Virus record (IMG/VR): IMGVR_UViG_2547132278_000005
Coordinates: 1-18,937 of that record
Reading direction: 5' to 3' (one strand)
Origin: a virus
Lineage: Duplodnaviria > Heunggongvirae > Uroviricota > Caudoviricetes
Length of the DNA stretch: 18,937 bases
Shown: one piece after another, positions 1,395 through 18,937 of the stretch
How positions within the stretch are numbered: position 1 is the first letter of the stretch
How the letters are laid out: each line of letters starts with the position of its first letter
The notes under the pieces: generated by a model
The model's input: only the letters and a program-made list of their open reading frames with translations
What the model was told of the DNA's origin: nothing
Database searches by the model: none
Position numbers and translations under genes: made by a program

Positions 1395-1707
1395 CGGTTA
1401 CCTTCTCCACTTTCACAGAACATAACGGCACTTCGCTGTCGGATGCTTTTGCTGTTTGGGATTATCAAAGCGGCAGATATTCTTTCATCTTAAATTTTAC
1501 GTCTTTATCCTGACTGATGTTTATCCTGTTTGGCTGCGAAATAAATATAAAATTAATATATATGTTGTAATGATATATTTTTATAAATTATTCCCTGCGT
1601 GAATTTTAATAAATTTAATCTATCCCTTTATACGCAATACATTTACTTTCCTCTTTTGATGATCTTAAATGTCTTATTTTTCGTAATGTGTATAACAAGG
1701 AATAGTG

Positions 1708-2223: not shown

Positions 2224-2238
2224 TAATCAGGAGGAGTC

Positions 2239-2778: not shown

Positions 2779-2816
2779 TCGATGTTAGTAACTTCAAGCC
2801 TATGATTCTTGAAGAT

Positions 2817-2849
2817 AAAAAACCCTCTGTAGTAACAGAGGGTTTTGTT
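2817..2849. terminator. Bidirectional rho-independent terminator between convergent genes
   Basis: AAAAA-CCCTCTG-tagtaa-CAGAGGG-TTTTGTT: 7-bp GC-rich stem flanked by an A-run and a T-run, lying between the 2239-2778 gene (+) and Rz (-). Confidence 0.7.
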
Positions 2850-2995
2850 CATTCATAGTGCAGGGTCAAATCATTCCCACTCAATTATTTACGGACACCA
2901 TAACCAATTGAGTAATAACATTTTTCCAAAGATGAATTTTTCCCATACCGTTTTATATACCGTCACCGGAAATCAGTACCATGAAAAATGCCATG

Positions 2996-3478
2996 CTATC
3001 TGGTCAGGGTGTCGTACTGTTTTTCGCAGACTCTTCCGGCTTCGGCTGCCCGGTCAGCATACTCTGCCAGTTGTCTGTTTCTCTCGAGAGATTTGCTGAG
3101 CACGTCGGCAAGCAAAACTCCGGTGTCTGCGGCTGACGACCCAGCGCCGACAATGGCGTTATAGTGCCTGAGCTGCTCACGGATGGCAACGAGCTGTTGC
3201 TGCAACCGGCCAGCGCGAGCGGCAGCATCAAGAGCATCATTGCGCGCCTGGTCGATCCTCTGCTGCGATTCACGTTCATTGATCGCTTTCTCCTGTTCGT
3301 AGTGCTGACGAACTCTCTCATCTTCAGTTTTGCGGTCTTCTTTCGCCTGAGCATACCCGGCGTCGTACTGACGACTGCCGTGCACATTCCAGGCTACAAC
3401 TCCTGATATGACCAGAACAGCAAGCATCGCCATGATAACCAACTGTTTTCTGTATGCTTTTACGAATGCCCAGATCAT
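2996..3478 (-). CDS. Rz-like i-spanin (inner-membrane spanin subunit)
   Basis: N-terminal TM helix, charged coiled-coil periplasmic domain; start overlaps the endolysin stop (ATGA); last gene of the lysis cassette. Confidence 0.8.
3004..3240 (-). CDS. Rz1-like o-spanin lipoprotein embedded in the +1 frame of Rz
   Basis: Internal ATG of ORF 3004-3387 gives [17 protein letters not shown]... with lipobox LAGC and a Pro/Ser-rich mature part, fully inside Rz. Exact start (3240 vs 3237) uncertain. Confidence 0.6.
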   Translation of the reverse strand: MMLLMLPLALAGCSNSSLPSVSSSGTITPLSALGRQPQTPEFCLPTCSANLSRETDNWQSMLTGQPKPEESAKNSTTP

Positions 3479-4104
3479 ACCGTCAGTACCTTACTGGCAG
3501 TGATGTACCGCGCGCGCCGGTCGTCGATGCCGTTCCTGCCACCATTGATAATCATAGTTACACGTACAATATCTCCGGTATACTTCATGCAGCCTTTGCA
3601 GGAGAAGAACCAGGCCGCGCTACGAGCCGCGTATTCGTCCAGTGCCAGCAGTTCAGGATTCTCCAGCAGGTCAACTTTCAGACCGTTTCCACAGTCACGA
3701 TAGTTATTCAAGCCGGTAATCTGGATAAGCCCGCGCCCACGGTAATTCCAGCCATCGCCGGGAGCATTGTTACCCATGCGTTTGCTGTATACCAGATTTG
3801 CGATCGCGCGCTGGCGCTCAAGTGGCAATGGTGGTTCACCAGCACGGCGCCCTAGTGCATTAGCCTGTTCCTGGGTGAGGCGTCCAGTCCTGACAAAGCT
3901 CGCCAGTCCGGTAACGCTGTAGTTGAAATTCTCCTGCAACCTAGTGAAGCCCCCAGACTCATGCCCGACTTGAGCAATAAACATTGCCTGATCTTCTGCT
4001 TTGCTGATACCAAACTCTTTCATCGCAGAAGTTATATGCGAGAACCAGCGAGCGGCCAGCACCTCGCTAATACCAGCAGCTCGCTGGAATTGCTTAATCT
4101 CCAT
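3475..4104 (-). CDS. Endolysin, glycoside hydrolase family 19 (chitinase-like lysozyme)
   Basis: GH19 motifs: [12 protein letters not shown] (catalytic Glu, compare plant chitinase AQTSHETTGG), second Glu in LQENFNY, and [15 protein letters not shown] (compare GRGPIQLSWNYNY); SD GAGG; overlaps flanking genes. Confidence 0.9.
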
Positions 4105-4402
4105 GTTTAGACCTCGTTATTTTGAAAATCTGAACGACGTTACCGCGCGTTTTAATAACCGCAGCAAGCATGACAGCGTTGATAATGACCTCTGATAAAT
4201 CCACAGCCATTGGCGTGCGTAACCAGATTGCATAAACGACACGAACTGGAATACTGGCCGCAGCAACAATCAGGAAATAAGCAAGCCACCCTCCCCATCT
4301 TCGGTGTTGAGATCCGTTACGCCGGAATGTGACAACGCGAATTGCTATACCAGTACAAATGACTGCATTAGTGATAAGCAAAAAAAACTCATGCGTTACC
4401 AT
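4094..4402 (-). CDS. Holin/antiholin-like small membrane protein (3 predicted TM helices)
   Basis: 102 aa, three hydrophobic segments, basic C-terminus; SD GGGGAG; overlaps the upstream membrane gene and the endolysin start, so sits immediately before the endolysin. Confidence 0.6.
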
Positions 4403-4793
4403 CGTCTTTTCTCCCCGGAATTAACTCGCGTGGATTATCTGAACGGTGATAGAGCCATATGCCAATACGCACAGCCACAATTGCTGAAACAAATGCACCA
4501 ACAGAAAAGGCCACTCCGCCTTCAAAAGAATCCTGTGTAATCGTTGGAATTAAGCTGGCTACTCCTATTAGGATTGACGAAGTTGGTTTGTAGAAGAGCA
4601 ATCCACAAAGGAAACTAAGCATGGACAAAAGAACTCTGCGACGAACTGGATACTCTACGGCAGAGGTAATGAAAATTACCGCCCCAGATAAAGAACCTAA
4701 TGCAACCTCTGGTGGCACACCTGCAATAAAAGCAATCAGGCCACCAACGCCAATTGATTGATTTAATTGGTAATTTGTAAATACACCAGACAT
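4389..4793 (-). CDS. Holin-like membrane protein (4 predicted TM helices)
   Basis: Four hydrophobic helices and a charged C-terminus ([19 protein letters not shown]); ATG at 4793 preceded by GGTGG (the ORF track starts at the GTG at 4802, which has no SD). Confidence 0.55.
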   Translation of the reverse strand: MSGVFTNYQLNQSIGVGGLIAFIAGVPPEVALGSLSGAVIFITSAVEYPVRRRVLLSMLSFLCGLLFYKPTSSILIGVASLIPTITQDSFEGGVAFSVGAFVSAIVAVRIGIWLYHRSDNPRELIPGRKDDGNA

Positions 4794-4850
4794 TTCAACC
4801 ACCCGTTAACATACATAAAAACCTCGTTAATCAAAAATAGAAACACATAA

Positions 4851-4886
4851 ATTAATAAAACCACCCGTTATGCGGGTGGTTTTATT
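4851..4886. terminator. Rho-independent terminator after the tailspike gene (functional on minus strand, possibly bidirectional)
   Basis: AAAA-CCACCCG-ttatg-CGGGTGG-TTTTATTT; on the minus strand the stem is followed by TTTTATTAAT. Confidence 0.7.
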
Positions 4887-4901
4887 TCATCCACTTACTT
4901 C

Positions 4902-7400
4902 TTATATGGCTACCATGGCTGTAGAGCCAGAGCCATAGGCACTTGATTCTAACTCGAGAGTGTAATATCCATTCTTAGTACCACCATCAACTCCTGACCA
5001 ATCAAATGATAATGAAATCCAGTAACCACTTTCACTAGGATCTTGCACAAGATTGTCACCCATACCCCTTATACGCCTAATAGGTTGATTAGGGCCGACA
5101 GAATCAACTTCATATATATCTGTCATATTTCGTCCTATCTGTCTGGCTGTGATAACAGGCCAAGAGCCACTATAATTTAATATAGTAACAAGGAATTGAG
5201 TGTCATTGTTTATCTTGGAAAGTATAGCTTCAATATACCCATTACCATGCGTTCCTCCTTTTGAGTTTATGCGTAGCTTTGCTATCCCAGTGTCAAACAT
5301 ATTTAGTCTGTTATCAAACGTTCTTGGATGCAGATCAGCTGGAAGAGGCAATCGAATAGAAGATAAAGTATATGGGGATGGTGTATCTTCTGGATTACCT
5401 ATGATCATATTTGGTAATCTTACTACAATTGATTCTCTAACCCCTTTTTGAATACCAGTTACCGGTTGGGATAAATGAACATGGACTGGGCGTATAGTAA
5501 TCCCCTGAATACTTGCATATCCTGTTGTTGTACCATTAAGATTATTAAATATAGCTATAGTTTTCCACCCTCTCCCCACTAAATTAGCAGCTCGTTTGGG
5601 AATTGTATCAAGTTTATGATTATGTCTATTTCTTAAAAAACGACCTGTTGATTGCTGAGCATATAAATTATGCCATAAGCTAGAACGTTGTGTTGAATAT
5701 GGATATATATCAACTGCTCCGGCATACCATCCATCAGTGACAATTGATATCTGATTATCATCCCAATAACCAATTACATCTACCTCAGCAGCCTCAGCAT
5801 CAAGATAAAAACTAAATGTTGCCATTGCTGCTGTATTAATGGGAAAGCCACCAAGAATACCTTGTAAAGTTGAAGCTCTTTGATTATAAACATTCACTAA
5901 GTTTGAATATACATCATAAAATCCGACTTGATCAGATTGTTTTCCAGGCCATGTATGCACTTCAGATGATATTGGTCTGTTACCCTGAAGTAACCCTCCA
6001 CCCAAAAGCATGGATACCATTGCCTCTCCTAAAATAGCATATCCTTTACTATTAAAGTGAACAGGGTCGCTTTGAATAGAACCATACTGTCTATTATAAG
6101 CAATTTCATGGGCAGGAAAATAAGCACATCCATAAACTGATGCAAGATTTCTTATTGACTCTCCCCACATTTGCCAAAGAGGATCCCCTTCCCCATTACC
6201 ACCGCTGGCAGGACTACAAAGTACAACCCCCATCCCCCAGTCAATAAGCTTACGAATAAATAACTCCATATTTTTCATATATGTATCGTAAGTCTGGCTA
6301 TCAGTATTAGCGGAGTCGTTAATTGCATACATTAAAAATGCTATATCGCAATTTGGATTAGACTGCCAATCAGGTTCATTATAAGCACGGTACGCTGTAT
6401 AACCTGATTTTGCTCGAACAGTTATTGTTACCGGGCAGCCAGACAATATTGGAAGTGCGTTCTTTATAGCCTTTGGATATGTCATTGTTGCATGGCGATA
6501 ATTATCACCAACGCAAACATCATCATCTTCTGGAGCGATAGTATCGGATGTATTAACATCATATCCAGCCGTTATTGAGTCCCCCTGACACAATATTTTT
6601 ATCCCTATTTTTTTTCGTAACTTATAATGAGCTAACGTAAGGTTTCTGATATTTTTTGAACGGTATTCTGCACTATCAAGAGATATCAACCACTCTTGAA
6701 TATTACGATTATCCGATGTATTAATAATGCTGGCACCTGTTGGCTTTGCCAACTCAATAAGTACATCAGATGCTGAACCAGATTCAGGAAGGACCATTAT
6801 CGGATTTCCAGAGTCATCCATAGCAACAATCTTATTCTTACGCTGCTCAATTCCCGGCAAAGCTGGTATAGGTTCAGGGGTTCGTAGCGTTCTGATCTGG
6901 TTTGTTTCAGAAACTCCATCAACATAATTTTTAGTCGCCGCATCTTGAGCGCGTGACGGTTCACGAAGATTGCGAATGTAGTTTCCCTGTGCATCATAAT
7001 AGTTAGCCACAAACGACGGCTTGCGTAACGCCAGGCTAAACCAGCTACGAACCTGCTGAATCAACATCGTTATTTTATCAAAAGCATTCTCATGCACTTC
7101 TGCAAAAAACTTTCCCTGATTACGCAGATCCATTTCCTGAGTAACAGGAAGCTCACGAGCTATAGATATCTGATGACCTCTAGCCAACGCCTCCGACAGA
7201 ACAACACTGCCGCCGTTGTACCCTCCAGCCCCGGTAACTGTGTAATCAGTATCAAGGGTCAGCACACTGACATTCTCGTTCAGGTCAACAACCTGCACCA
7301 CCAGATCCGATTTATTGAAAATCCTAAAGGTGTAAGGAAATGATGTCGTAACGCCGTTACCTGTGTATTCGTTGTGGTCAACTTCGGTTGAGACCGTCAT
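4902..7400 (-). CDS. Tailspike / receptor-binding protein with T7 gp17-like N-terminal anchor and central SGNH (GDSL) esterase domain
   Basis: 832 aa; N-terminus (YTGNGVTTSFPYTF...LVVQVVD...VLTLDTDYTV) resembles the conserved podovirus tail-fibre anchor; SGNH blocks GDS at 6576-6584 (ILCQGDSITAGYD) and DPVH (catalytic Asp/His) in SDPVHFNSKGY; SD GGAGA. Confidence 0.85.
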   Translation of the reverse strand: MTVSTEVDHNEYTGNGVTTSFPYTFRIFNKSDLVVQVVDLNENVSVLTLDTDYTVTGAGGYNGGSVVLSEALARGHQISIARELPVTQEMDLRNQGKFFAEVHENAFDKITMLIQQVRSWFSLALRKPSFVANYYDAQGNYIRNLREPSRAQDAATKNYVDGVSETNQIRTLRTPEPIPALPGIEQRKNKIVAMDDSGNPIMVLPESGSASDVLIELAKPTGASIINTSDNRNIQEWLISLDSAEYRSKNIRNLTLAHYKLRKKIGIKILCQGDSITAGYDVNTSDTIAPEDDDVCVGDNYRHATMTYPKAIKNALPILSGCPVTITVRAKSGYTAYRAYNEPDWQSNPNCDIAFLMYAINDSANTDSQTYDTYMKNMELFIRKLIDWGMGVVLCSPASGGNGEGDPLWQMWGESIRNLASVYGCAYFPAHEIAYNRQYGSIQSDPVHFNSKGYAILGEAMVSMLLGGGLLQGNRPISSEVHTWPGKQSDQVGFYDVYSNLVNVYNQRASTLQGILGGFPINTAAMATFSFYLDAEAAEVDVIGYWDDNQISIVTDGWYAGAVDIYPYSTQRSSLWHNLYAQQSTGRFLRNRHNHKLDTIPKRAANLVGRGWKTIAIFNNLNGTTTGYASIQGITIRPVHVHLSQPVTGIQKGVRESIVVRLPNMIIGNPEDTPSPYTLSSIRLPLPADLHPRTFDNRLNMFDTGIAKLRINSKGGTHGNGYIEAILSKINNDTQFLVTILNYSGSWPVITARQIGRNMTDIYEVDSVGPNQPIRRIRGMGDNLVQDPSESGYWISLSFDWSGVDGGTKNGYYTLELESSAYGSGSTAMVAI

Positions 7401-7503
7401 GTTAAATCTCCAGATAGTCGCAGCACCCGTTGCGCCGCATATCCGGTTATTCTATTACCTTAAAAACCACATATGGATAGATAACCCATAAATACGAATA
7501 GAT

Positions 7504-7520
7504 ATTACCTTTCGGGTAAT
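7504..7520. promoter_or_regulatory. Operator-like palindrome ATTACC-tttcg-GGTAAT (copy 1 of 4)
   Basis: Perfect 6-bp inverted arms with 5-bp spacer in the divergent region between the tailspike and the LexA-box gene; the same arms recur at 8624, 8717 and 9725. Confidence 0.5.
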
Positions 7521-7556
7521 TTGCAAAACGTGCTGGATAGCAAACAAATTATTTGC

Positions 7557-7576
7557 TACTGTATAAATATACAGTT
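7557..7576 (+). promoter_or_regulatory. LexA (SOS) box
   Basis: TACTGTATAAATATACAGTT against consensus TACTGTATATATATACAGTA (CTGT-N8-ACAG, 18/20), ending 20 bp upstream of the ATG at 7596. Confidence 0.75.
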
Positions 7577-7595
7577 ATTGCATGGAGAAGATAAG

Positions 7596-7853
7596 ATGCA
7601 GCAGTATCACTATCCACTGGAAGACGGATTTACCGAAAGGATTCACACGCCGGGAGGCGTCAGATCACTAGTGGAGGGATCGCACTTGATGAAATTACTC
7701 CGGGATCTCGATAAGGATGGATTTAATGTCGATGGCCCACTTGCCGAACTGACTGCACTGATTAACTACGTCACCAGCTCACAGATGTCTATGCGGGATC
7801 TGCAAACACATCTCGACTATTGTGCCGAACAATTACGAAAACAAACCCGGTAA
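7596..7853 (+). CDS. Small SOS-regulated protein (85 aa), paralog of the C-terminal domain of the AntA-like antirepressor; putative antirepressor module
   Basis: ATG with SD GGAGAAG directly downstream of the LexA box; aligns with residues ~130-210 of the 9004-9660 protein (shared GxxSL.E.S.LM.LL..L..DG..V.G..AELT...Y......RD.QTH..Y). The ORF track starts upstream at 7521, but that extension overlaps the promoter/LexA box. Confidence 0.65.
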   Translation: MQQYHYPLEDGFTERIHTPGGVRSLVEGSHLMKLLRDLDKDGFNVDGPLAELTALINYVTSSQMSMRDLQTHLDYCAEQLRKQTR

Positions 7854-7860
7854 ATTTAAA

Positions 7861-7876
7861 GGCCGCAAGAGCGGCC
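7861..7876. terminator. GC hairpin (GGCCGC-aaga-GCGGCC) between convergent genes, putative bidirectional terminator
   Basis: Perfect 6-bp GC stem flanked by AT-rich sequence on both sides; overlaps the stop of the minus-strand 7876-8604 gene. Confidence 0.5.
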
Positions 7877-8604
7877 TATCGTTTCGCTTTGTGCTCGTCC
7901 CAGCACGTTTTGCACCATGCCATTAAGCCATCCGCATTTTGATTATTAGGGTAAAAGCTTGTTCGTTTTCTGCGGACATTACAAATTGGGCACCACTTCA
8001 TATGGCGTGTATTCTTTGGGCCATCGAGACACCTTGCACACCACTTAGTCAATCCATCTGGATTTTTTGACGATTTCCTGAATTTTTCATATGGTAGGTT
8101 TATTCTGCATCGCAAGCACTGCTTGCTACCACTTGAAACTCTGTTAGCTGATTCTTCTTTTGGCGGCGATACAGAAGGTATTCTTGCTGGCTCTGATACT
8201 GCCTGAGGTGCTTTTTTAGATGACTGAGACGATATGTCATCACCAGGGAATCTTCCATGATATGCCGGACGCGTTGACACTCCAGGTGGAAGCTCAGCTG
8301 TAAACGGCTTTGGCTGAATCAGTTGCCTCTCTTTTGCTAACTCCTGCTGTTTATAATATGTCTGGATTACCGCACTATCATAAGCAGGAGGTGCGGAAAT
8401 ATTAGGCGCATTACCTCCAGTTTTTTGAAACTGAGTAGAGGTGTGTTCTATCACCTGTGTACGATTAATCGTTATCTCCCCATCTTCGGTCTTTATCGTT
8501 TTGTTATGATTAACGACCGTACGATCAGAGATCTTAGTCTTGTTCTGGTTGATAACGTAAATAATCACCGCAACCACACCAACAACTATCCAGAAAACTT
8601 CCAT
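7876..8604 (-). CDS. Membrane-anchored protein with two tandem C-x2-C-x20-C-x2-C zinc-ribbon repeats
   Basis: N-terminal TM helix (FWIVVGVVAVIIYVI), Pro/Ser-rich linker, then CLRCRINLPYEKFRKSSKNPDGLTKWCARC and CPICNVRRKRTSFYPNNQNADGLMAWCKTC (shared N.DGL..WC..C); SD GAGGA. Confidence 0.75.
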   Translation of the reverse strand: MEVFWIVVGVVAVIIYVINQNKTKISDRTVVNHNKTIKTEDGEITINRTQVIEHTSTQFQKTGGNAPNISAPPAYDSAVIQTYYKQQELAKERQLIQPKPFTAELPPGVSTRPAYHGRFPGDDISSQSSKKAPQAVSEPARIPSVSPPKEESANRVSSGSKQCLRCRINLPYEKFRKSSKNPDGLTKWCARCLDGPKNTRHMKWCPICNVRRKRTSFYPNNQNADGLMAWCKTCWDEHKAKR

Positions 8605-8623
8605 TGCTTTTCCTCACAATAAC

Positions 8624-8640
8624 ATTACCTTAAAGGTAAT
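8624..8640. promoter_or_regulatory. Operator-like palindrome ATTACC-ttaaa-GGTAAT (copy 2 of 4)
   Basis: Perfect palindrome about 20 bp upstream of the start codon of the 7876-8604 gene, abutting its SD. Confidence 0.5.
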
Positions 8641-8716
8641 ATCTTGCTTTCAGGTGATCAAGCGTTAAACGCAATCAACCAAATACGGTTGATTTTAATA
8701 TTTCTTCGCGTTTATC

Positions 8717-8733
8717 ATTACCTTTGCGGTAAA
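8717..8733. promoter_or_regulatory. Operator-like palindrome ATTACC-tttgc-GGTAAa (copy 3 of 4)
   Basis: Same arms and spacing as the other copies; lies at the head of the structured leader upstream of the AntA-like gene. Confidence 0.5.
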
Positions 8734-8767
8734 TTTACATTGCACTCCTCTTGTGCCATAGTAATCG

Positions 8768-8845
8768 GGCACTGGCAAAATCCAGTGCCGGGATTGGTCT
8801 CCCGGATTACTAAGTGGCGCATACCACGCCAGACGTGGTTTTTTT
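8768..8845 (+). other. Structured non-coding leader: two GC hairpins followed by a terminator-like hairpin with T-run (possible attenuator or small RNA)
   Basis: GGCACTGG-caaaat-CCAGTGCC (8768-8789); CCGGGA-ttggtc-TCCCGG (8788-8805); CCACG-ccaga-CGTGG-TTTTTTT (8824-8845). No credible ORF or RBS in this stretch. Confidence 0.3.
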
Positions 8846-9003
8846 ATGCGTATAGCACAGTCATGCCAGAATTATGGTGGGCTGAATGGGGGTCCGAAAG
8901 GACGCCGGTACCACTTAGGCCGGTAAGACCAACTCCGTTCAGTTCACCACCATCTGATTGGTCTCAGCGGTGGTGATGTAATTCGCTAAGTGGAGACGCC
9001 ATC

Positions 9004-9660
9004 ATGAACGCTCAACTCATCCCCGTATTCAACGGCACTATATCTAACGAAACAGCCCTACTTTGTAATGCCCGCGATCTGCACGCTTTTTTAGGTGTTA
9101 AAAAGGTGTTTGCAGCATGGATTACAAATCGCATATCAGAATACGAATTCATTGAAAATCAAGACTATATTTTGCTTTCCAATTTGGGAAAGCAAACATC
9201 TGGTAGAGGCGGCCACAACCGCAAAGAGTACCACCTCACCCTTGATACAGCCAAAGAGCTGGCGATGGTCGAGCGTAACGAAAAAGGTCGCCAGGTGCGA
9301 CGCTACTTCATTGAATGCGAGAAACGTTTAAGACAACAAGAAACAAAAGTGGAGAAGGTCTTGTCAGGCTTCATGCCCGCCATTATGGAGGCGATCAAGC
9401 TGGAAGACAAAAAAGAATACAGCGCCCCACTGAAGCCCGGCTACCGTAGCCTGATTCATTCGCCGTCTGGTGTTCTCGGCCTGACGGAGAACTCACTGCT
9501 GATGAATTTGCTGAACCAGTTACAGGAAGACGGGCACGACGTATCGGGCGCGGCGGCGGAACTGACCACCATGTTCTGCTACATCGTCGGTGTGAGCAAA
9601 TGCCTGCGTGATATCCAGACCCACGCGGAGTACATCAACGACAAGGCAGGGTTCTTCTGA
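9004..9660 (+). CDS. AntA-family phage antirepressor-like protein (N-terminal AntA domain plus C-terminal domain shared with the 7596-7853 protein)
   Basis: N-terminus LIPVFNG...[33 protein letters not shown]...[14 protein letters not shown]...[11 protein letters not shown] matches the AntA/AntB antirepressor family pattern; SD GGAG. Confidence 0.8.
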
Positions 9661-9724
9661 CAGAACGGCGGCACAGGGATGTGCCTTTAAATAATTCTGT
9701 ACGATTGCAGGTGAATAGCTTACT

Positions 9725-9741
9725 ATTACCTCAAGGGTAAG
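9725..9741. promoter_or_regulatory. Operator-like palindrome ATTACC-tcaag-GGTAAg (copy 4 of 4)
   Basis: Same arms and spacing; about 60 bp upstream of the 9800 start codon and downstream of a weak hairpin terminator (9670-9696). Confidence 0.5.
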
Positions 9742-9799
9742 AAAGCATTTTTAATCTTCCCTTCAAAACGCGTCCTGTAGCCAAACATGGGAGGACGAA

Positions 9800-10432
9800 A
9801 TGAGAACAAATACAACAAGAAAAGCGATGCCATACATTATCCCAGAAGCAGATTTCGATAGAAAACTGAACATGTCTGAGAAGAACACTAGTCACACCGA
9901 AAGCTACTTAGCGAAAGGTGTGGTTGATTTCGTTCTTCCGGGATTCACAACACCTTATGGTTATCGCCTTGTAAAATCTTGTAATGGCGATCATTACAGA
10001 ATGATTACTACCAGCGATACTCCAGAAACGGTGTATGCGGTTAAGTTAATCTTTCGGGAAGATATCGTCGAAGCCAAAAGAACATGTACGCAGATCATGG
10101 TATGGCGTACGCCTAATGTTATTCATGACCGTGCTGTTCATGGTTTGCCTCAGATTTTTTTTCAGTTCTTCCTAGAGCAATATGCGATCGTTGTATCTGA
10201 TGAGCAACAAACAATCGATGGGAGAAGATTCTGGGAAAGAATGATTTCTTGGGCTATAAACACCCCGGGATATAATGTATACGTTTCAGATGGCTCTGAA
10301 GAAGATAGACCTCTTAGCTTCATGACATCATGGGATGATTTCTATAGCCAGTGGGCTGATTTCTGTTGGGGCAGTGATAAAGATGTGCATACCCACAGAC
10401 TACTGGTTATAAGCAAAGATAAACTGCATTAA
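9800..10432 (+). CDS. Hypothetical protein (210 aa), unassigned accessory-island gene
   Basis: Strong SD GGGAGGA; soluble, Trp/Asp-rich, no recognised motif; followed immediately by a strong terminator. Confidence 0.75.
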   Translation: MRTNTTRKAMPYIIPEADFDRKLNMSEKNTSHTESYLAKGVVDFVLPGFTTPYGYRLVKSCNGDHYRMITTSDTPETVYAVKLIFREDIVEAKRTCTQIMVWRTPNVIHDRAVHGLPQIFFQFFLEQYAIVVSDEQQTIDGRRFWERMISWAINTPGYNVYVSDGSEEDRPLSFMTSWDDFYSQWADFCWGSDKDVHTHRLLVISKDKLH

Positions 10433-10437
10433 TAGAA

Positions 10438-10458
10438 GCCCGCGCCGCGGGCTTTTTT
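10438..10458 (+). terminator. Rho-independent terminator
   Basis: GCCCG-cgccg-CGGGC followed by TTTTTT, 6 bp after the stop codon at 10430-10432. Confidence 0.8.
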
Positions 10459-10495
10459 GTGTCTGCGGATTCCCGCCCGGGCGGCGGTGGCATTC

Positions 10496-10522
10496 GTTAA
10501 AAACAAGGCCGCGAAAGCGGCC
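10496..10522 (-). terminator. Rho-independent terminator for the minus-strand membrane-protein gene
   Basis: On the minus strand GGCCGC-tttc-GCGGCC is followed by TTGTTTTTAA; lies just downstream of the stop at 10532. Confidence 0.6.
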
Positions 10523-10531
10523 TGTGACATG

Positions 10532-10828
10532 TCACGCTCTTTTTCTGAATGATAGCCATTCGAAAAATGATGACATTCCACCGCAGACAATAGCAAATAT
10601 GATCCCACCAAAGAAGAGAAGGCCAGCCTGCCACCACTCCCACCGCCATACATCCACAGCGCCAACCATACCAACAATCGCTCCAACAAATGGAATATAG
10701 CTCACGATGAAAGCAATGGGGGCTGCAATTATCCAGTGCAATCCCCACCATGATTCAAGCCCAGCCATAATTGCTGCCAACTGAAAAAGACCAACGACGA
10801 TATAAACAATGAATCCTATAGCTTGCAT
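10532..10828 (-). CDS. Small polytopic membrane protein (98 aa), candidate superinfection-exclusion-type protein
   Basis: SD AGGTGA; 3-4 hydrophobic helices, Trp-rich loop (VWRWEWWQAG); sits directly after the ejection-protein genes, the position sieA occupies in P22. Confidence 0.7.
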   Translation of the reverse strand: MQAIGFIVYIVVGLFQLAAIMAGLESWWGLHWIIAAPIAFIVSYIPFVGAIVGMVGAVDVWRWEWWQAGLLFFGGIIFAIVCGGMSSFFEWLSFRKRA

Positions 10829-10840
10829 GTAGTCACCTAT

Positions 10841-10993
10841 TTACCCAGTAAAAATCAGAGGCCTCCCCTCAATAAGGCTTGCAACAAGAACTATTCCCTG
10901 CACAACAAAGATGAACCAGCAAATAGCTTGAGTCTGAGGGTTAAGAAAATATTTGTAGCGGTCAATAAATAACAACCCACCAGAAATTATCAC
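10841..10993 (-). CDS. Possible small hydrophobic peptide (50 aa, GTG start); speculative
   Basis: Hand-translated minus-strand ORF (V/M)IISGGLLFIDRYKYFLNPQTQAICWFIFVVQGIVLVASLIEGRPLIFTG; no clear SD. Confidence 0.2.
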   Translation of the reverse strand: MIISGGLLFIDRYKYFLNPQTQAICWFIFVVQGIVLVASLIEGRPLIFTG

Positions 10994-11023
10994 ACTCAAA
11001 ATAATTAAAAACACAACACTTCC

Positions 11024-13498
11024 TTATTGCGGAGTGACATCCTGAGGTCGCCACCAGTATGTCTGGTTAAACTCTTTCTTCGAACGTTGCTCCATTTTAC
11101 GCAAATAGCCTGGTGAAAAATACTCCTGCATCTGGTTAAAGATCATATGATCGAGAGCCGCCTTTAAGTACCAGAGATTCGCACCTGGCATCAAACCTTT
11201 CCCCAGCTTCACCAGATCACCACCAGTCTGCTCACTCTTCCCTTCCACAGCATTTAACGGTATGCCCTGAGCAATCTTCACTACGTCATCAACCAGACCA
11301 GCTACCGGGCCAAGCATCGACGCCAGCGCGCCGCTTCCGTACCTAGTGTGATCTGACAATAAAAAGTCACCGTAAAGGCCAAGACCACCACCTTTCAGTA
11401 GAGCACCAAGCCAAAATTTAGCAGCATCTTCTCCTGTCATCTCGCGAGGATTACGACCAGACGCAAGGTCGTTAAGTTGCTGCGACAAAGCGCCAAGAAT
11501 GGTCGTACTGGCAATAAACGTCGCAATATATGCCGCACGCCCACCAGCAGACGGCATACCCATAGCGCGTGACCAGTGACGCATAACCACCGAGATAGGG
11601 AACGATTTAAACAGGAAAACACTTCTCGTTAATTCACCTTTCCATGTTCCACGCTGAATACCAGAACCGGTTATCAGTTGCTCACGTGCTCCCGGTGTAA
11701 TAACAGCCATATCAACTTCTTCAGTTACGGCACCGAGCAGTTTACGCATTGCCTCAAATTTCACGCGTTCAGGCTCACCAAGATGTTTAACTGCTGAATC
11801 AGGGATACGCATAATGCTTTCCGGTGTCAGCATCGTATTATTGCCGTTCCCCCAGTCCTCCTGTTGCGCCAGCTTCCATACGCTCCAGTCTGTGTCAGTA
11901 ATCCCTTTGCTTTTCAGGATACGAAAATCAGAATCATCGAGGCTACGAAGGTCTGGTGTCCGTGACACTACTTCTCCCAGGCTTCCCATCATGGTTACGC
12001 CATAGGCGCGCTTGTGCGCATCTGACCATGCTGTAAGCCCACTGGCACGCATTACCGCCGTTGCCGCCCAACGAGACACAGACGGCCCCATATTATCCAT
12101 CGCCCAGCGGTTAACGCTGCCAAGTAGAGATTCCATCGCCAGGCCAGCGCGGCGCGCCCGCGCAAGCTCAGTACGGTTCGTTGGGTCCATAGCTTCAAGC
12201 TGGTTGCGAAATAACTGGTTCATTGGAAGGTTGGTAACCTTCGCAGACAGATACATGGTTCCAAGATCAGAGAACGATGACAGCAACGCGGATCCGAGTC
12301 TGCTGGCAACCAGCCAGTTGCGGATATTGTCAGACCATCGCGCGATGTGCGGATTCGCTACAGGCTGTGTTTTTCCGGAAATAAAGTTGTACAAGTTCTC
12401 TGTTTTGTTCGCCAGACGCTCGACGCTACCGGTTTTACTCGGGTTAGCTGTTGCCGTTTCTGCCTTAACCTGATCAAGAAGGGAGCGGAAAACATGATCG
12501 GGGTTTGGACCATATGTTTCCACCAGAGCAATATCTTTACTGATACCTTCCAGGTGACCGACCATGATTTCCCATAGAGAGCGATCACCATAAAGTTGTT
12601 GATATTGGAGATAGGAATCTGCATCTTTGAAATGTATCTGTCGTGATGCATTACCACGGTTAGCACGTGCGCCGGAAATTCGCATTCCGGTATCAGTAAG
12701 CTTATTCAGCCCACCAGTAGCGATCGTGTTATAAGCCTCTCCAAGAAATGCAGACAACTCGGCATCGTTCATCAGTTGTCCATCGGCTCGGGTATAATAT
12801 TTGCGATCCAGCTTACCTATAACATCGCCAACCCACTTATCCTTTGATACCGCCCCAACCTTTTCCATAGAATGATGTTGAGGGATCCCCCAGTTTTCGA
12901 GATAGCCAATGTCCCCACCAGCATCATTAAACCGGCGGCGCAGCAGCTCTGTAACTTCTCTCCACGCCTTAGCACCTTTTCTTGCTTTAGCATTGCCAGT
13001 ATTTTGCCCCCGCATTTCATATACCAGGTCACGTACGCCCGCTTCATCTTCAAACAGACCAAAAAAGCGAGGATCAACTGCTTCGAATGCCTCCTGCAAT
13101 TGACTCAATGCATAATCACGGGTGGCTTTTGTTCTGGATTCAACAGAGAGGAAATTAGATTTACCGTCTGCATTAAAAGCTATAGTACGGTTAAGAGCGC
13201 CAAGTTTCCCATCAGCCCCTTGATAGCTATTGATAAATTTATCCAATCTCTGACGCGCGGCTATAGTGAGAGCCACACGACGTTTCTTTAATGCCGCTTC
13301 TCGCTGTAATTCTTCAGATGCCAATTGTGCTGCTCGATATAGCCGCTCTGATTCGGAAAGTTGTCTCCACGACATCGGGTCATCACGAGCAATGGAGCGC
13401 ATATTTCGATAAATGCGGTCTTCAATGTTCTGTATTTCTCGCGCCGTTAACGTGCGCTGCGCCGCCTGCTGGACCGCTTGTATACATTCCTGTCTCAT
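11024..13498 (-). CDS. Large virion internal/ejection-type protein (824 aa), last gene of the structural operon
   Basis: Long intact ORF with SD GAGG, 5 nt after the upstream gene stop; size, composition and position are typical of podovirus internal/DNA-ejection proteins. Family not recognised. Confidence 0.8.
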   Translation of the reverse strand: MRQECIQAVQQAAQRTLTAREIQNIEDRIYRNMRSIARDDPMSWRQLSESERLYRAAQLASEELQREAALKKRRVALTIAARQRLDKFINSYQGADGKLGALNRTIAFNADGKSNFLSVESRTKATRDYALSQLQEAFEAVDPRFFGLFEDEAGVRDLVYEMRGQNTGNAKARKGAKAWREVTELLRRRFNDAGGDIGYLENWGIPQHHSMEKVGAVSKDKWVGDVIGKLDRKYYTRADGQLMNDAELSAFLGEAYNTIATGGLNKLTDTGMRISGARANRGNASRQIHFKDADSYLQYQQLYGDRSLWEIMVGHLEGISKDIALVETYGPNPDHVFRSLLDQVKAETATANPSKTGSVERLANKTENLYNFISGKTQPVANPHIARWSDNIRNWLVASRLGSALLSSFSDLGTMYLSAKVTNLPMNQLFRNQLEAMDPTNRTELARARRAGLAMESLLGSVNRWAMDNMGPSVSRWAATAVMRASGLTAWSDAHKRAYGVTMMGSLGEVVSRTPDLRSLDDSDFRILKSKGITDTDWSVWKLAQQEDWGNGNNTMLTPESIMRIPDSAVKHLGEPERVKFEAMRKLLGAVTEEVDMAVITPGAREQLITGSGIQRGTWKGELTRSVFLFKSFPISVVMRHWSRAMGMPSAGGRAAYIATFIASTTILGALSQQLNDLASGRNPREMTGEDAAKFWLGALLKGGGLGLYGDFLLSDHTRYGSGALASMLGPVAGLVDDVVKIAQGIPLNAVEGKSEQTGGDLVKLGKGLMPGANLWYLKAALDHMIFNQMQEYFSPGYLRKMEQRSKKEFNQTYWWRPQDVTPQ

Positions 13499-13503
13499 TT
13501 AAT

Positions 13504-15306
13504 TTAACCTCTCAAGAAACACGCCACAGCGACATCAAACAGGCTGGAATCCTGTATTGCCTGCTCACTTTCCCTGTTCGCTTCATCCAGTACTTCACGC
13601 GCGCTGCGCGATTGTGGATTACCATCATCATCCAGCACGGTGATTATCATGTCCGGATATTCAAGCAGCGAGTCTTCAGCTATACGCAGATCAATATCTC
13701 CTGCCGGATCTGCCATCATTTTTTGTTCTGTCTGTTGCAATATCTTACCGGGCTCAAAAGGAGCTACTTCGTCTGGCGTCCTGACCTCTGCTGTTTTATA
13801 GAATGAAACAGCCTGAGCATTAAGTTCACTTTCTGCCTGCTGTCTCCGAGCCAGTTCTGCTCGAGCTTCAAAAAACTGACCGCCAGGCTCATGCGGTGCC
13901 AACGCGTTACGGGAAAATTCCAGGCGTTCTTGTGCCTGCCGGATTCGTTGGTCAATATCCCGAAGTCTGGCCTGTTTATCTGATCGAGCACGAGACAAAG
14001 CTTTACCGCTACCGGTTGGCTCTTCTGCAAGAATTTGTGCGCGCTGTTCAGTGAGATTTTCAATAATTCGTTGGCTATTAGCGATTTCAGACTGGTAAAC
14101 CTGTCTATCGCCACGAGGCAAAAGCTGCGCAGCCTGTTCTTCAAGCAACCGATTTTCGATAGCGCGCGCCGTTACTCCATCATCTACAGATGACAGAGCC
14201 TCATTAACTGCCTGAGACAGCAGATTCTTGCGCCCAGGAATTTCACTGAAAGATGCAGACTCAACAATGCTGGCTACGTCTACAGGTCTCCCCTGGCTAA
14301 CATCAGACATGGTTTTTCGCAGAGCCTGAATGTGCGAATTACGCGAAAGCACGTTGATCGGCACGCCGGGAGCAATATCAATTTCAGCATGATGAGCGGC
14401 ATTCGCCGCCAGTGCAGCATCGACATCAACTGGTGAAAAATTTGGTGCGCTTGTAGACTCGCCGCGAGAGTTAATAAATCTGCCGACACCACCAAACGCC
14501 ACCCCAAGAACAGCATCAATAGCAATTGCCTGTCGATCCAACACATCATACTGGTTAGCCATTTCGCTATAGCCACCATCACGAAGCGTTTTTGCAGTAA
14601 GCCCACGCTGTGCCATACCGAACGCAATATTTGTACCTGCGGCATAGGCAATATCTGGCGTTGCACGTACTGCTGTTGCTGCGGCGCGTCGCACTGAACT
14701 TTCACCCGTCCGCGCAAGCTGAGCCGCCACACCTTCCGCCAGCGCACCACCAGCACGTAACCCGAGGCTCATAGGGATCAGTGTTCCGGCACCAGCAGTA
14801 ATACCCTGCACTAATCCCGCTTCCTGCGCCGTCCTGAAATCAACACCCTGTGCTGTCAGCCGTTCAAACTCAGAAAAACCCTGTAGAGAAGTTACCGCCG
14901 CAGCACCTCCGACCGGACCACCGAGTGTTGTACCGACAACAGCCTGCCCGCCCATATCGAACAACCCATAAAGAACCTGCCCGGCGGTTCCGGTTGTCGC
15001 GGCATCAGGCGTCAGCCGCTTAACCTGCTGCTCTGCTAGTTTTCTCTGCTCGGCAATGTATGAAACTGAAGTGTCATTGAGCGAGGTGTTTTCGTTAACA
15101 AACTGAGCAATCGGGGATACGATTTTATCCATCCCTGCCCATAGCAACTGATCTGGCTTTGCCACCAGCCCGGAGTACAAACCAGACAATGCCGCTCCTA
15201 CAGCATTGTCGAAAAAACCAACATCGCTGTTAAAGCCCGCTGGATTTGATGCTGCTTCGTCAAGCTGCTGATTCTGGTTTACTGGATTAAGGCCAAAGTA
15301 ACTCAT
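13504..15306 (-). CDS. Virion internal/ejection-type protein (600 aa), Ala/Gly-rich
   Basis: ATGA start/stop overlap with the upstream gene at 15303-15306; Ala/Gly-rich low-complexity N-terminal half. Confidence 0.8.
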   Translation of the reverse strand: MSYFGLNPVNQNQQLDEAASNPAGFNSDVGFFDNAVGAALSGLYSGLVAKPDQLLWAGMDKIVSPIAQFVNENTSLNDTSVSYIAEQRKLAEQQVKRLTPDAATTGTAGQVLYGLFDMGGQAVVGTTLGGPVGGAAAVTSLQGFSEFERLTAQGVDFRTAQEAGLVQGITAGAGTLIPMSLGLRAGGALAEGVAAQLARTGESSVRRAAATAVRATPDIAYAAGTNIAFGMAQRGLTAKTLRDGGYSEMANQYDVLDRQAIAIDAVLGVAFGGVGRFINSRGESTSAPNFSPVDVDAALAANAAHHAEIDIAPGVPINVLSRNSHIQALRKTMSDVSQGRPVDVASIVESASFSEIPGRKNLLSQAVNEALSSVDDGVTARAIENRLLEEQAAQLLPRGDRQVYQSEIANSQRIIENLTEQRAQILAEEPTGSGKALSRARSDKQARLRDIDQRIRQAQERLEFSRNALAPHEPGGQFFEARAELARRQQAESELNAQAVSFYKTAEVRTPDEVAPFEPGKILQQTEQKMMADPAGDIDLRIAEDSLLEYPDMIITVLDDDGNPQSRSAREVLDEANRESEQAIQDSSLFDVAVACFLRG

Positions 15307-17255
15307 TGCGGAATATCTCCGGAGAATCTCTGACGCTTCTGAGTCAGATCAAGAACAACGGGAGAACCATCATCTTTCAGCAGATAACCAGTACCAAGTT
15401 TCACCAGGTACTGACTATCGCCGTAACTTTGCAAACCATACTGACCAGGCGGTGTTTTTATCCCTGTGCCAACAACTTGTTCATTCCAAACCTGATTAAC
15501 CTGCTTATCGAATTGCTCTGCAGACATTCCCCACGGCAAAAGAACATTCCCCATTCCGTTATAGTCATGCACGCCACCTGTAGCTACGTTAACAGCCTGT
15601 TTCCAGATATCATTGTCAATTTCGCCTGATACCACGCCTTTTTTCGCCATCACACCAGCGTAATAGTCCTTTGCGATCTCGTATGCCATTGATGCCCCCT
15701 GAGCATCACCAGCAAATGCATCCTTCACCATGTCAGAAAACTCAAGGCGAAGATCAGCATCTTTAGGCATCGGAATACCTTTCGCGTCATCAGTACCCTT
15801 ACGAGCCGCCGCACCAGCAAGAATTGTCTGCGCTGCGGTTTCAGGAGACACGGAAACATCAGGATTAAACCAGTTTTTTTCTGCCAAAATACCACCAGGC
15901 TTATCCATCAGTATCCCGGCAACGGCAGCAGATGGAGCGTTGGCACTGATCTGCTGTAGTGCTGACATATACACCTGCCCACCACCAGTGCTCTGCCTGA
16001 TGGTATCGAGATATGCTGCCTGTTGGGAAACTGGAGCATCACGAAAGAAAACACCGATCTGATTGGCCTCGTCTTTGGAAAAGAACGTCAGTGGAGTGCC
16101 ATATGACTTAGCAAGGTCACTGACCTGAGCGGCACGCAAGGCAACGCTCTGTCCAAAGTTATCCTTATTGCTCATGTCGATAGGCTTTGCCTGTCCGGAG
16201 GCAAGAGAGAACTGCACAGGATCCGACTGCCGCTGCTTTATCACCTGATTTGCAGCCGAAACAACGTTGTCATAAAGAGCTGCGCGTGCCGCATACCCCT
16301 CCCCTGTCTCACCAGTATCCGGGCGTAATTGCTCAACATATGCTGTAATGCTGCTTGTCGGCATGTTGCGGAAAGAGCCTATATACTGTCCGGCGATTTG
16401 CGTATTTCTGAACTCGGTATATCGCAGGTTTCCTTCTCTTACTCCATAAGCTGCAATAAAATCAGCCTCACCAGGTGGGTTAGGAAATTCAACGCCACGC
16501 ATATACGCAGCTGTCGCATCGCGAACCTGGCTGTCAATCATCGTTTTATATTCAGCCTGCTGCTGCCGACGCAGTTGATCCGCCTGTCGCATAAAACTTG
16601 CCTGCGCCTCAGGAGATGCCGCATCGAATGCTGCATTACCGGTATAGCGTTTGGTGTTGGTTGGAATTGTTGATAAACCAAGTGCTGCACTGACACCAGC
16701 AGTTAACTGCTGATCACTGTATGGCTGGCTACCGTTCTCATGATGGATAATGGCTGCACAAAGCGCCTTCAGGGTATCAGGATTAGATGCATCGAGAGGC
16801 TCATCAGCAGAAACGCCAAGTTGTTCGCACACTGCTTTGATATACGACATAGTGTCATTTTTATCAGTAGGCGGTGCCCAGCGATTAATTATCTCGCTGA
16901 CGGTATCAATACCCTGCCTCTGATACGACATCAGGTTTCGCCCTAATGCACGAATCCCGTGTTCAGGTGTTTCGAATTTAGCAAATCGACCATCATCACC
17001 GGTCTGGCCTACCCACGGATTAGTTTTGCTGTATTCGAGATTTCCTGGGTTATTGTTGCGTATGCCACGGGCACGCTCGGAAGAGTCACTATCTGCTACA
17101 GCACGGCGAGCTCCAGCAGCAGTATCACTTAACTCGCCATTACTTTGGATGAATGCGGTCGCATTGTTTGCCGACCACTGGGACAATGCGGCATCAGCAA
17201 CCTTCTCTTTAAACTCGACTTTCTTGGCCTGGGATTTGCTCGTCGCTCCAGCCAT
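15303..17255 (-). CDS. Virion internal protein with conserved N-terminal motif (RGIRNNNPGNLEYSK...ETPEHGIRALGRNL); possible virion-associated cell-wall enzyme
   Basis: Start placed at the ATG at 17255 (GAGGA 14 nt upstream, 47-nt overlap with the upstream gene); the ORF track's 17351 start would overlap by 142 nt and has no SD. Enzymatic assignment is unverified. Confidence 0.7.
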   Translation of the reverse strand: MAGATSKSQAKKVEFKEKVADAALSQWSANNATAFIQSNGELSDTAAGARRAVADSDSSERARGIRNNNPGNLEYSKTNPWVGQTGDDGRFAKFETPEHGIRALGRNLMSYQRQGIDTVSEIINRWAPPTDKNDTMSYIKAVCEQLGVSADEPLDASNPDTLKALCAAIIHHENGSQPYSDQQLTAGVSAALGLSTIPTNTKRYTGNAAFDAASPEAQASFMRQADQLRRQQQAEYKTMIDSQVRDATAAYMRGVEFPNPPGEADFIAAYGVREGNLRYTEFRNTQIAGQYIGSFRNMPTSSITAYVEQLRPDTGETGEGYAARAALYDNVVSAANQVIKQRQSDPVQFSLASGQAKPIDMSNKDNFGQSVALRAAQVSDLAKSYGTPLTFFSKDEANQIGVFFRDAPVSQQAAYLDTIRQSTGGGQVYMSALQQISANAPSAAVAGILMDKPGGILAEKNWFNPDVSVSPETAAQTILAGAAARKGTDDAKGIPMPKDADLRLEFSDMVKDAFAGDAQGASMAYEIAKDYYAGVMAKKGVVSGEIDNDIWKQAVNVATGGVHDYNGMGNVLLPWGMSAEQFDKQVNQVWNEQVVGTGIKTPPGQYGLQSYGDSQYLVKLGTGYLLKDDGSPVVLDLTQKRQRFSGDIPQ

Positions 17256-17817
17256 GCGCAATGCCGTAATCCTCAATTTGCTGGAAAGTTTGCTTATTAG
17301 CCAATACGTATGCGGCGTTGTCGCCATACAATGCTGCGGCATTTTTACCATTGTTCAGCAGCGTAGCCTGAAACTGGCCTTCTTCGTAGGCGTTTATTTG
17401 CCCTATCTCGTGCCGCCCGGCCTGCGTAGTGAACTGAATGCGCTGCTGCTGCGCCTGCTGCATGAAAGTATTACGAGCCTGTTCATCCGGCAGCGACATA
17501 GCCAGTTGTTCGACCTGAGCATCAAACTGCTGCGTATACTCATGGCCTTTTCCAATAGCATTTTTCCCTTTCAGGTTAAGCAACCCTGTTTCAGGGTTAT
17601 TCAGCAGATCGCTGCTTATCTGACTGAGGTTAAGAGATGCCTCCTGAGCCAGAGCGATATTGGCACGCTGTTTTGCCTGACCAAAAACATCAATAGTCTC
17701 TGCCCCTGCCCGAACAAAAGCATCACCAATACCTGGCTGAGAAAACGTCTGCAAGACTGCTGACTGAACTCCACGGCTCTCAACCTGACGTCCGGATACT
17801 GTTGGTACGACTGGCAT
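17209..17817 (-). CDS. Virion structural protein (202 aa)
   Basis: ATG at 17815-17817 with SD GGAGGA and a TAATG overlap with the upstream gene stop; the ORF track's 17892 start lies inside the upstream gene. Confidence 0.7.
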   Translation of the reverse strand: MPVVPTVSGRQVESRGVQSAVLQTFSQPGIGDAFVRAGAETIDVFGQAKQRANIALAQEASLNLSQISSDLLNNPETGLLNLKGKNAIGKGHEYTQQFDAQVEQLAMSLPDEQARNTFMQQAQQQRIQFTTQAGRHEIGQINAYEEGQFQATLLNNGKNAAALYGDNAAYVLANKQTFQQIEDYGIAHGWSDEQIPGQESRV

Positions 17818-18679: not shown

Positions 18680-18690
18680 AGTCGCAGTGC

Positions 18691-18937
<247 letters not shown>

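Follow-up and report, generated by a model that had tools for sequence, protein, structure and literature searches.

An accessory gene with a divergent, predicted GNAT-like product and a putative immunity-repressor operator in the cargo slot behind the antirepressor of an Escherichia coli prophage

The DNA analysed here (18,937 nucleotides, IMG/VR virus record IMGVR_UViG_2547132278_000005, positions 1 to 18,937; hereafter the window) contains, directly behind the antirepressor gene (ant) of an Escherichia coli prophage, a gene at 9800-10432 that encodes a protein of 210 amino acids (aa). A sequence-only reading had proposed this gene as an insulated expression unit and a candidate effector cassette. 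Our analysis identifies it as an exchangeable accessory cassette and not as a structural gene. According to structure prediction its product is a divergent phage-borne GNAT-fold accessory protein in a moron slot, and the palindrome in front of the gene would, judged by its position, be one copy of a dispersed operator of the prophage's immunity repressor. The explanation that we tentatively favour, and to which we give a little less than an even chance, is that the product may be a divergent GNAT-like enzyme that acts during lytic growth, in counter-defence or in host modification.

The cassette is ~0.8 kb long and comprises the operator with a probable promoter, a Shine-Dalgarno (SD) sequence, one gene and a terminator, all placed in the slot that follows the antirepressor (Table 1). 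Its GC content is 40.9%, as compared to 49-50% in ant and the virion genes. In our slot survey, which covered 5,426 complete E. coli genomes, the whole cassette is present in 92, whereas ~210 others keep only the 75-80 bp after ant and then continue with other cargo, i.e. a YafO-family toxin, with or without an upstream open reading frame (ORF), or small ORFs. An alignment of six prophages is near-invariant from the ant stop codon to the GGTAA and unrelated beyond, the dyad being kept ahead of every cargo variant, and on the right-hand side homology with other E. coli prophages stops at ~10461, just past the terminator that forms the right cassette edge. Thus, three features by which morons or accessory cassettes are recognised are found here, namely a terminator of their own, an atypical GC content, and presence or absence among collinear phages. 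As to the fourth, an own promoter that is active in the repressed prophage, there is a weak promoter candidate, and the putative repressor operator abuts its -10 hexamer, which predicts repression in the lysogen. The YafO-family toxin lies behind the same operator-bearing element in two of the compared loci (L094, 3291-3836, and L095, 3126-3951) and in phage TL-2011b; one YafO-family slot toxin is preceded by a 108-aa ORF, a possible antitoxin.

The individual elements are largely as the sequence-only reading had described them. The 210-codon ORF is present on the plus strand with an ATG start, the strong SD lies at the expected distance from it, and a GGAGG-type SD is kept upstream of most homologues. 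The strong terminator, which had been placed at 10438-10458, is essentially right, was called by our terminator scan and has a folding energy of -15.3 kcal/mol (z = -2.8). The palindrome exists, although the true dyad spans 9726-9740 instead of 9725-9741, and the gene directly follows an antirepressor, as the upstream ORF matches both AntA and the Ant family of PHROG. What needs correction is the notion of insulation: the SD, the terminator and the operator all belong to the cassette, but the operator is shared across the prophage and is thus neither private nor insulating. Likewise, the effector proposal holds insofar as the gene is a self-contained, exchangeable accessory gene, yet no known defence system was matched.

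Taken alone, the 5-bp arms of the palindrome TTACC-TCAAG-GGTAA mean little. The pattern TTACC-N5-GGTAA, however, occurs in four exact copies in the window, as compared to 0.33 expected at up to one mismatch, a number reached by none of 200 shuffles, and all four copies fall in 2.3 kb around the antirepressor gene (starting at 7505, 8625, 8718 and 9726). The complete Uetakevirus phiv142-3 has the dyad pattern 15 times (0.66 expected), and E. coli SCU-116, which has a complete prophage with an identical gene, has 18 dyads at the locus, 17 of them inside the prophage (0.74 expected). Both have two dyads in the interval between the cro-like gene and the gene of the helix-turn-helix (HTH) repressor and a further two shortly behind the latter gene; the remaining ones precede replication genes, terminase genes, the antirepressor operon and the cargo slot. 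Moreover, the dyad begins at the last base of a -10-like hexamer, i.e. TATCAT at 8718, TACTAT at 9726 and AATTAT beside the repressor gene, where the sequence TTGACA-17-AATTAT shows the same overlap of -10 and operator. A second palindrome, AATAG-N4-CTATT (9714-9727), was also considered, but is present as a single copy, as chance predicts.

The HTH repressor, which is ORF21 in ZX5 and Orf43 in phiv142-3, is identical in ZX5, phiV10 and phiv142-3, and its overexpression shuts down lytic transcription, its operators not being defined in that work (PMC9782041). From the positions of the sites we infer that the immunity repressor has its operators dispersed over the prophage and that the 9726-9740 dyad is one of them, and the dispersal of this dyad before nearly every transcription unit appears to be undescribed for the Uetakevirus/phiV10 group. 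As the dyad abuts the -10 hexamer of the cassette and copies the repressor operator, the gene should be off in the lysogen. The shared operator would also tie the gene to the immunity circuit, which favours anti-defence or host takeover over a lysogen-protective abortive infection.

Dispersed immunity sites as such have precedents, e.g. the C1 operators of P1 and the gp71 stoperators of mycobacteriophage L5, which are asymmetric. The putative operator described here resembles them in being a repressor-type site with 15-18 copies throughout the genome, which stand in front of most transcription units, among them accessory genes and the antirepressor operon, but differs in being a symmetric 5-N5-5 dyad. 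As an independent test of immunity control we looked for a P1 C1 operator near the P1-like homologue, and none was found upstream.

The promoter candidate of the cassette in the window is a modest match to the consensus, and sister prophages including KC-Dl-1, which encodes the identical protein, read TTGCAG-17-TACTAT at the same place; in phage LLS the promoter candidate of the homologue reads TTGGCT-17-TACTAT. The spacer is further subject to an indel of 7-8 bp, with the short form in the window and HCM-28C-2 and the long form in KC-Dl-1, AR_0055, EC21Z-144 and phiv142-3, which may alter the strength of the cargo promoter. Transcription might also enter from the left. The hairpin after the ant stop codon has an interrupted U-run, was not called in the terminator scan, and is invariant in six prophages with different cargo; it is probably a weak, leaky terminator, so that read-through from the ant operon, which carries the same operator as the cassette, is possible. 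We also considered a hairpin that sequesters the SD, since the leaders of 26 homologues nearly all pair the SD with an upstream CUCC or GUCC in minimum-free-energy folds, but it is not separable from chance (median pairing 0.76 vs 0.66 after shuffling of the upstream sequence, per-sequence p mostly > 0.1) and was rejected.

The protein has a mass of 24.6 kDa and a pI of 5.97, and its highest Kyte-Doolittle mean over 19 residues is 1.05, i.e. it lacks a hydrophobic segment and is soluble as had been read from the sequence; the enrichment in Trp and Asp noted at the same time is real but mild (2.9% and 8.1%, respectively). That it contains no recognisable motif is borne out at the sequence level by searches of Pfam, NCBIfam and PADLOC, none of which gave a match, with no family of PADLOC-DB 2.0, which covers described defence systems, at E <= 1. 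The only family match is PHROG 1349, labelled as of unknown function. At least 1,000 public contigs encode the exact protein, every time under the label "hypothetical", and a literature search for WP_001260052.1 and PHROG 1349 found no mention of either. Residues 1-9 are variable and have a predicted local distance difference test score (pLDDT) below 50, whereas Met10-Pro11 (codon 10, position 9827) is invariant in 39 of 39 close homologues, several of which begin exactly there; Met10 could be an alternative or ancestral start, yet the strong SD belongs to Met1 here. Two ORFs on the opposite strand, 9731-9895 and 10162-10323, are regarded as spurious because they run antisense within the conserved coding sequence.

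An AlphaFold2 model built from 39 homologues (mean pLDDT 82.5, predicted template modelling score 0.78) suggests a fold that is GNAT-like but divergent. GNAT proteins dominate all three structure searches. Against the PDB, Foldseek lists GNATs first, none of them significant (best E 0.036), and against the viral models of BFVD the top matches are uncharacterised phage proteins with template modelling scores of 0.63-0.71, e.g. from Agrobacterium jumbo phage Atu_ph07, followed by GNAT-annotated viral proteins at E ~3e-4. The order of predicted secondary-structure elements, as we read it, fits that of the GNAT fold, b1-a1-a2-b2-b3-b4-a3-b5-a4-b6-b7, i.e. a strand, two helices, a strand meander, a helix, a strand, a helix and two further strands, and the protein shares this alpha/beta order with GNAT superfamily members such as GNA1 (2vez), Naa40/NatD (4ua3), HAT1 (1bob) and the C-terminal domain of ICL2/Rv1916 (8g8k). 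Beyond the GNAT core, the model has additional strands at its N-terminus, and a helix and a strand extend its C-terminus.

Across 138 diverse relatives, the residues conserved best are P11, N29, Y79, Q98, W102, R103, F120, F121, S/T133, D134, Q137, T138, G141, F144, W145, A152, Y161, D164, W190, G191, I204 and S205. The polar ones among them (Q98, R103, S/T133, D134, Q137, T138 and D164) are found where predicted strands end, shortly behind such an end, or at a helix N-terminus; in the model these places would correspond to the ends of the strands equated with b4, b5 and b6 and the N-terminus of a4. In GNATs, acyl-donor binding and catalysis occur at these places, and the strands concerned would flank the acyl-donor cleft. 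The stretch T138-x2-G141-x2-F144-W145 appears to have the spacing of GNAT motif B, N-x2-A-x2-L-Y, and would form a motif-B-like helix.

The protein belongs to a large family. A search of 5.8 billion proteins yielded 63 clusters, all of ~210 aa, from Enterobacterales and relatives and all named "hypothetical" or "phage protein", and a hidden Markov model (HMM) search of 1.84 billion representative proteins yielded 915 clusters (50% identity) at E <= 1e-3, almost all of them single-domain proteins of ~200 aa. No function is recorded for the family in any library searched, and a deeper homologue search with a 138-sequence profile gave no named relatives. Domain fusions were considered as functional hints, but are rare single cases (an MqsA Zn-ribbon, DUF5397, a weak SAD/SRA match) and uninformative.

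The homologues occur in very different surroundings. In the lambdoid phage LLS the homologue, gene 57, follows the lysis genes at the extreme right genome end, with its own terminator, and the dyad at this gene is the only exact copy in the LLS genome. In Serratia and Leclercia siphoviruses it lies between the tail chaperone and the tape measure genes, often beside P22-type ant/arc modules, and in P1-like Citrobacter plasmids between baseplate genes and sit, on the opposite strand. Large phage contigs of the lytic type have relatives with 28-38% identity in their accessory regions, e.g. beside a T4-type RNA ligase gene. Finally, solo homologues without phage genes within 6 kb occupy genus-specific syntenic chromosomal sites. 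In Xenorhabdus the site is what we take, from the neighbouring sequences, to be the interval between ppc and metF; in Enterobacter, Leclercia and Lelliottia the gene presumably adjoins nfsB-ramR-ramA, and in Photorhabdus it lies between genes that we read as cellobiose phosphotransferase genes and hda. Proteus, Providencia and Morganella have solo copies at other fixed chromosomal sites. No conserved partner or antitoxin-like gene adjoins the homologues in phage, plasmid and chromosomal contexts (~80 loci). The most divergent close homologue (37% identity) has a co-oriented, conserved gene of ~205 aa without a Pfam match 15 nt downstream, and this pair occurs in two independent contigs (L092, 851-1516/1531-2148; L093, 4186-4851/4866-5480); the downstream gene is possibly a partner gene or a tandem paralogue.

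These contexts bear on the idea that the gene encodes a virion structural or assembly protein, which we regard as highly improbable. Homologues are indeed situated inside the tail gene cluster of Serratia and Leclercia prophages and adjoin baseplate genes in P1-like plasmids. However, homology to a structural or assembly protein, by which the sequence-only reading wanted its effector proposal to be judged, was looked for, and no structural PHROG or Pfam family matched; sister phages with the same virion genes do without the gene, it lies on the strand opposite to the structural operon both here and in P1-like plasmids and occurs as a solo chromosomal gene, and its product has an enzyme-like predicted fold.

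In the explanation favoured here, the repressor bound to the 9726-9740 dyad would keep the gene shut in the lysogen, as the positions of the sites suggest, and the gene would be expressed whenever the repressor is absent, i.e. early in infection or after induction. The product would work as an acyltransferase: in the course of lytic development it would covalently modify some molecule of the host or of the phage, with acyl-CoA (CoA, coenzyme A) or another activated donor, e.g. an aminoacyl-tRNA as in Mom of phage Mu, and the modification may help the phage via counter-defence or host takeover. The relatives in large lytic phages count in favour of a role in the lytic phase, and the GNAT-like fold makes an enzyme likelier than a simple binder.

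Several observations weigh against this explanation. A sigma-70 promoter scan of 9660-9800 found no promoter, the operator function of the dyad is deduced from where the sites lie, and homologues in Serratia, P1-like and chromosomal contexts lack a TTACC-N5-GGTAA operator. Stable solo copies among housekeeping genes argue for a function that benefits the cell and is independent of the phage. With respect to the fold, GNAT HMMs match none of the 138 family members, and PDB sequences match neither the 39- nor the 138-sequence profile, i.e. similarity to the superfamily at the level of sequences or HMMs is missing, in addition to the extra elements at both termini. In the register given by the predicted secondary structure, the motif-A loop reads A112-V-x-G115-L-P117 and not Q/R-x-x-G-x-G/A, with G115 not strictly conserved and P117 nearly invariant, and at the position of the motif-B tyrosine, which is catalytic in many GNATs, there is an invariant Trp. 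The altered loop together with the Trp in place of Tyr makes the use of acyl-CoA doubtful. Two of these points, the solo copies on chromosomes and the absence of the CoA loop, are genuine evidence to the contrary. A more far-reaching version, in which PHROG 1349 with its roughly 900 clusters would constitute a new class of GNAT-fold enzymes that has lost the CoA loop and, as Mom does, employs a donor other than acyl-CoA, e.g. an aminoacyl-tRNA, on an immune protein, nucleic acid or signalling molecule of the host, is a long shot.

The degenerate motif A and the Trp that replaces the motif-B Tyr would also suit a non-catalytic GNAT-like scaffold that binds or blocks a host protein or signalling molecule, or modulates the repressor/antirepressor switch. 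In prophages of E. coli, Serratia and Yersinia the gene recurrently neighbours an antirepressor or Arc module, and one relative is fused to the toxin-binding Zn-ribbon domain of MqsA; both observations point in the same direction. We nevertheless doubt this reading, as the conserved polar residues cluster where GNAT catalysis occurs, no immunity module is near the gene in LLS, P1-like and chromosomal contexts, and sister phages without the gene retain the same immunity region.

Similarly unlikely in our view is a small-molecule acyltransferase that serves the cell in detoxification, resistance or metabolite modification and hitch-hikes as lysogenic-conversion cargo. Many GNATs acetylate antibiotics or toxic metabolites, and the GNAT-like predicted fold, the vertically retained solo copies in Enterobacter, Leclercia, Lelliottia, Photorhabdus, Proteus, Providencia, Morganella and Xenorhabdus, and the conserved aromatic residues Y79, W102, F120/121, F144, W145 and W190, which could form a ligand pocket, would all fit such an enzyme. 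The probable repressor control in this prophage and the presence of the gene in large lytic phage genomes do not, and neither a CoA-binding motif nor neighbouring genes that hint at a pathway were found.

A lysogen-protecting effector, i.e. a single-gene defence, an abortive-infection protein or a toxin that the prophage would express weakly or that superinfection would activate, is unlikely too, albeit less so than the scaffold or the small-molecule enzyme. In its favour, the gene is built like a typical moron and occupies classic moron slots in several phages, YafO-family toxins fill the same slot in sister prophages, the solo chromosomal copies persist without phage genes, so that the gene can serve the cell alone, and the GNAT toxins KacT, TacT and AtaT are among the weak Foldseek matches. 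Yet there is no PADLOC match, no adjoining antitoxin-like gene in any context examined, and a putative repressor operator at the -10 hexamer that predicts silence in the lysogen; the chromosomal copies are at syntenic housekeeping sites and not in variable defence islands, and distant relatives occur in strictly lytic-type phage genomes. In detail, the protein resembles TacT, AtaT and KacT in the predicted GNAT fold, the carriage on mobile elements and weak Foldseek matches (E 0.04-0.13), with YafO as alternative cargo of the slot, but it lacks HMM similarity to these toxins and, in ~80 loci, an adjoining antitoxin of the ribbon-helix-helix (RHH)/DUF1778 type, and the stability of the solo copies on chromosomes speaks against a toxin that is left unneutralised. 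GiPD474, a Gifsy prophage defence protein widespread in Enterobacteriaceae, was also considered; it is an ATPase and unrelated to the protein studied here.

The slots themselves are familiar from other phages. In HK97, gp15 is located between the tail chaperone and the tape measure genes, and in λ, bor follows the lysis genes; both are morons and encode membrane or lipoproteins that are expressed from the prophage. Like them, the gene described here stands alone between conserved modules, ends in its own terminator, has an atypical GC content and varies in presence, but its product is cytoplasmic and it has a putative repressor operator, and on account of this operator it is probably, unlike gp15 and bor, not expressed in the lysogen.

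For the favoured explanation, i.e. an enzyme acting in lytic growth, phage-encoded GNAT-fold effectors provide the closest models. AcrVA5 is such an effector and acetylates Cas12a. Another is Rac of phiKMV-like phages (PMC7552054), and Mom of phage Mu has a GNAT fold and modifies adenine in a Gly-tRNA-dependent manner without normal CoA chemistry (PMC13219725). The proposed likeness is that of a single small GNAT-fold phage protein, encoded by a non-essential gene, that acts during infection for the benefit of the phage. Additionally, mom resembles the LLS homologue in being a separately regulated unit at the extreme right genome end. A Mom-like enzyme in the strict sense was considered and rejected (hhalign probability 0.2%, BLASTP E 4.9 against Mu Mom). 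In contrast to mom, the gene has no Com-like translational activator, as there is no overlapping upstream ORF, and the protein lacks the HTH-like insertion and is acidic (pI 6.0), which is not expected of a DNA- or tRNA-binding enzyme.

Table 1. Coordinates of the cassette and of related features in the window
Feature	Position	Strand	Description
Coding sequence	9800-10432	+	ATG start, 210 aa, soluble, GNAT-like predicted fold, PHROG 1349; identical to WP_001260052.1
Shine-Dalgarno sequence	9789-9795	+	GGGAGGA, 4 nt 5' of ATG
Candidate promoter	9698-9726	+	-35 TGTACG (9698-9703), 17-nt spacer, -10 TACTAT (9721-9726); 7/12 consensus, read by eye
Putative operator dyad	9726-9740	.	TTACC-TCAAG-GGTAA; abuts -10 hexamer; by position, one copy of a dispersed immunity-repressor operator
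Intrinsic terminator	10434-10462	+	stem-loop 10434-10456, 10 pairs (6 G-C), 3-nt loop, then TTTTTTG (U6 tract)
Hairpin after ant stop codon	9670-9685	+	GGCACA-GGGA-TGTGCC then UUUAAAUAAUU; -10.1 kcal/mol, z = -1.5
Antirepressor gene, AntA/BRO-N type	9004-9660	+	Pfam AntA PF08346, 4.2e-26; PHROG 377 Ant, 2.7e-66; outside cassette
Second putative operator copy	8718-8732	.	abuts -10 (TATCAT) of predicted promoter of isrK/C4/ant operon
Third putative operator copy	8625-8639	.	perfect 15-bp palindrome between divergent ORF 7876-8604 (-) and ant operon
Fourth putative operator copy	7505-7519	.	just upstream of ORF 7521-7853
isrK-like Hfq-binding small RNA	8769-8845	+	Rfam match, 67.7 bits
C4-antisense-like RNA	8870-8954	+	Rfam match, 61.2 bits

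The window is part of an E. coli chromosome. Bases 1 to ~2900 are host genes (for a MASE1 protein, yfgH and yfgI), and beyond them follows the right part of an epsilon15/phiV10-like (Uetakevirus) prophage that is integrated beside guaA. The isrK- and C4-like RNAs directly upstream of the antirepressor gene constitute an immI arrangement of the P1/P7 type in a Uetakevirus-type prophage, and ORF 8644-8976, which overlaps both Rfam matches, is probably not a gene. Both ORF 7521-7853 (+) and the C-terminal part of the antirepressor match PHROG 450, so that this ORF looks like a detached C-terminal module of ant. ORF 7876-8604 (-; 242 aa, PHROG 6762) shows weak matches to endonuclease VII and Lar-like Zn-ribbons and is present in some sister prophages only, i.e. 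it represents a second variable insert in the immunity region. A further cargo slot is found in the SCU-116 sister prophage, where a gene for a 646-aa membrane acyltransferase-family protein (2135-4075 of that locus), which the window lacks, is flanked by the holin and the tailspike gene and closely preceded by a dyad with one mismatch.

At the right end, homology to sister prophages ends at ~18690, and the sequence beyond (about 18700-18937), which we take to encode the N-terminus of an IstA transposase of the IS21 family (IS100-like), interrupts a virion gene. Due to this transposase-like insertion the prophage is probably defective. In the host part, yfgH (1705-2223, +), a glycine-zipper 2TM protein in RefSeq, matches PHROG 1277, labelled 'DNA methyltransferase', at 5e-111; this label looks like a mis-annotation imported from host DNA that flanks prophages.

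Taken together, our analysis proposes a candidate operator sequence, dispersed genome-wide, for the immunity repressor of Uetakevirus (the phiV10 group), and a large, wholly uncharacterised protein family is now framed by a predicted fold, candidate catalytic residues, a putative operator input and a set of sister prophages for comparison. If the protein turned out to be an ordinary acetyltransferase it would be routine cargo, whereas a counter-defence enzyme would mean new chemistry in phage-host conflict. If the more far-reaching version, a long shot, were true, the family would represent a broad phage counter-defence enzyme that is switched on by loss of the repressor and was later domesticated as a solo gene in several genera of Enterobacterales.

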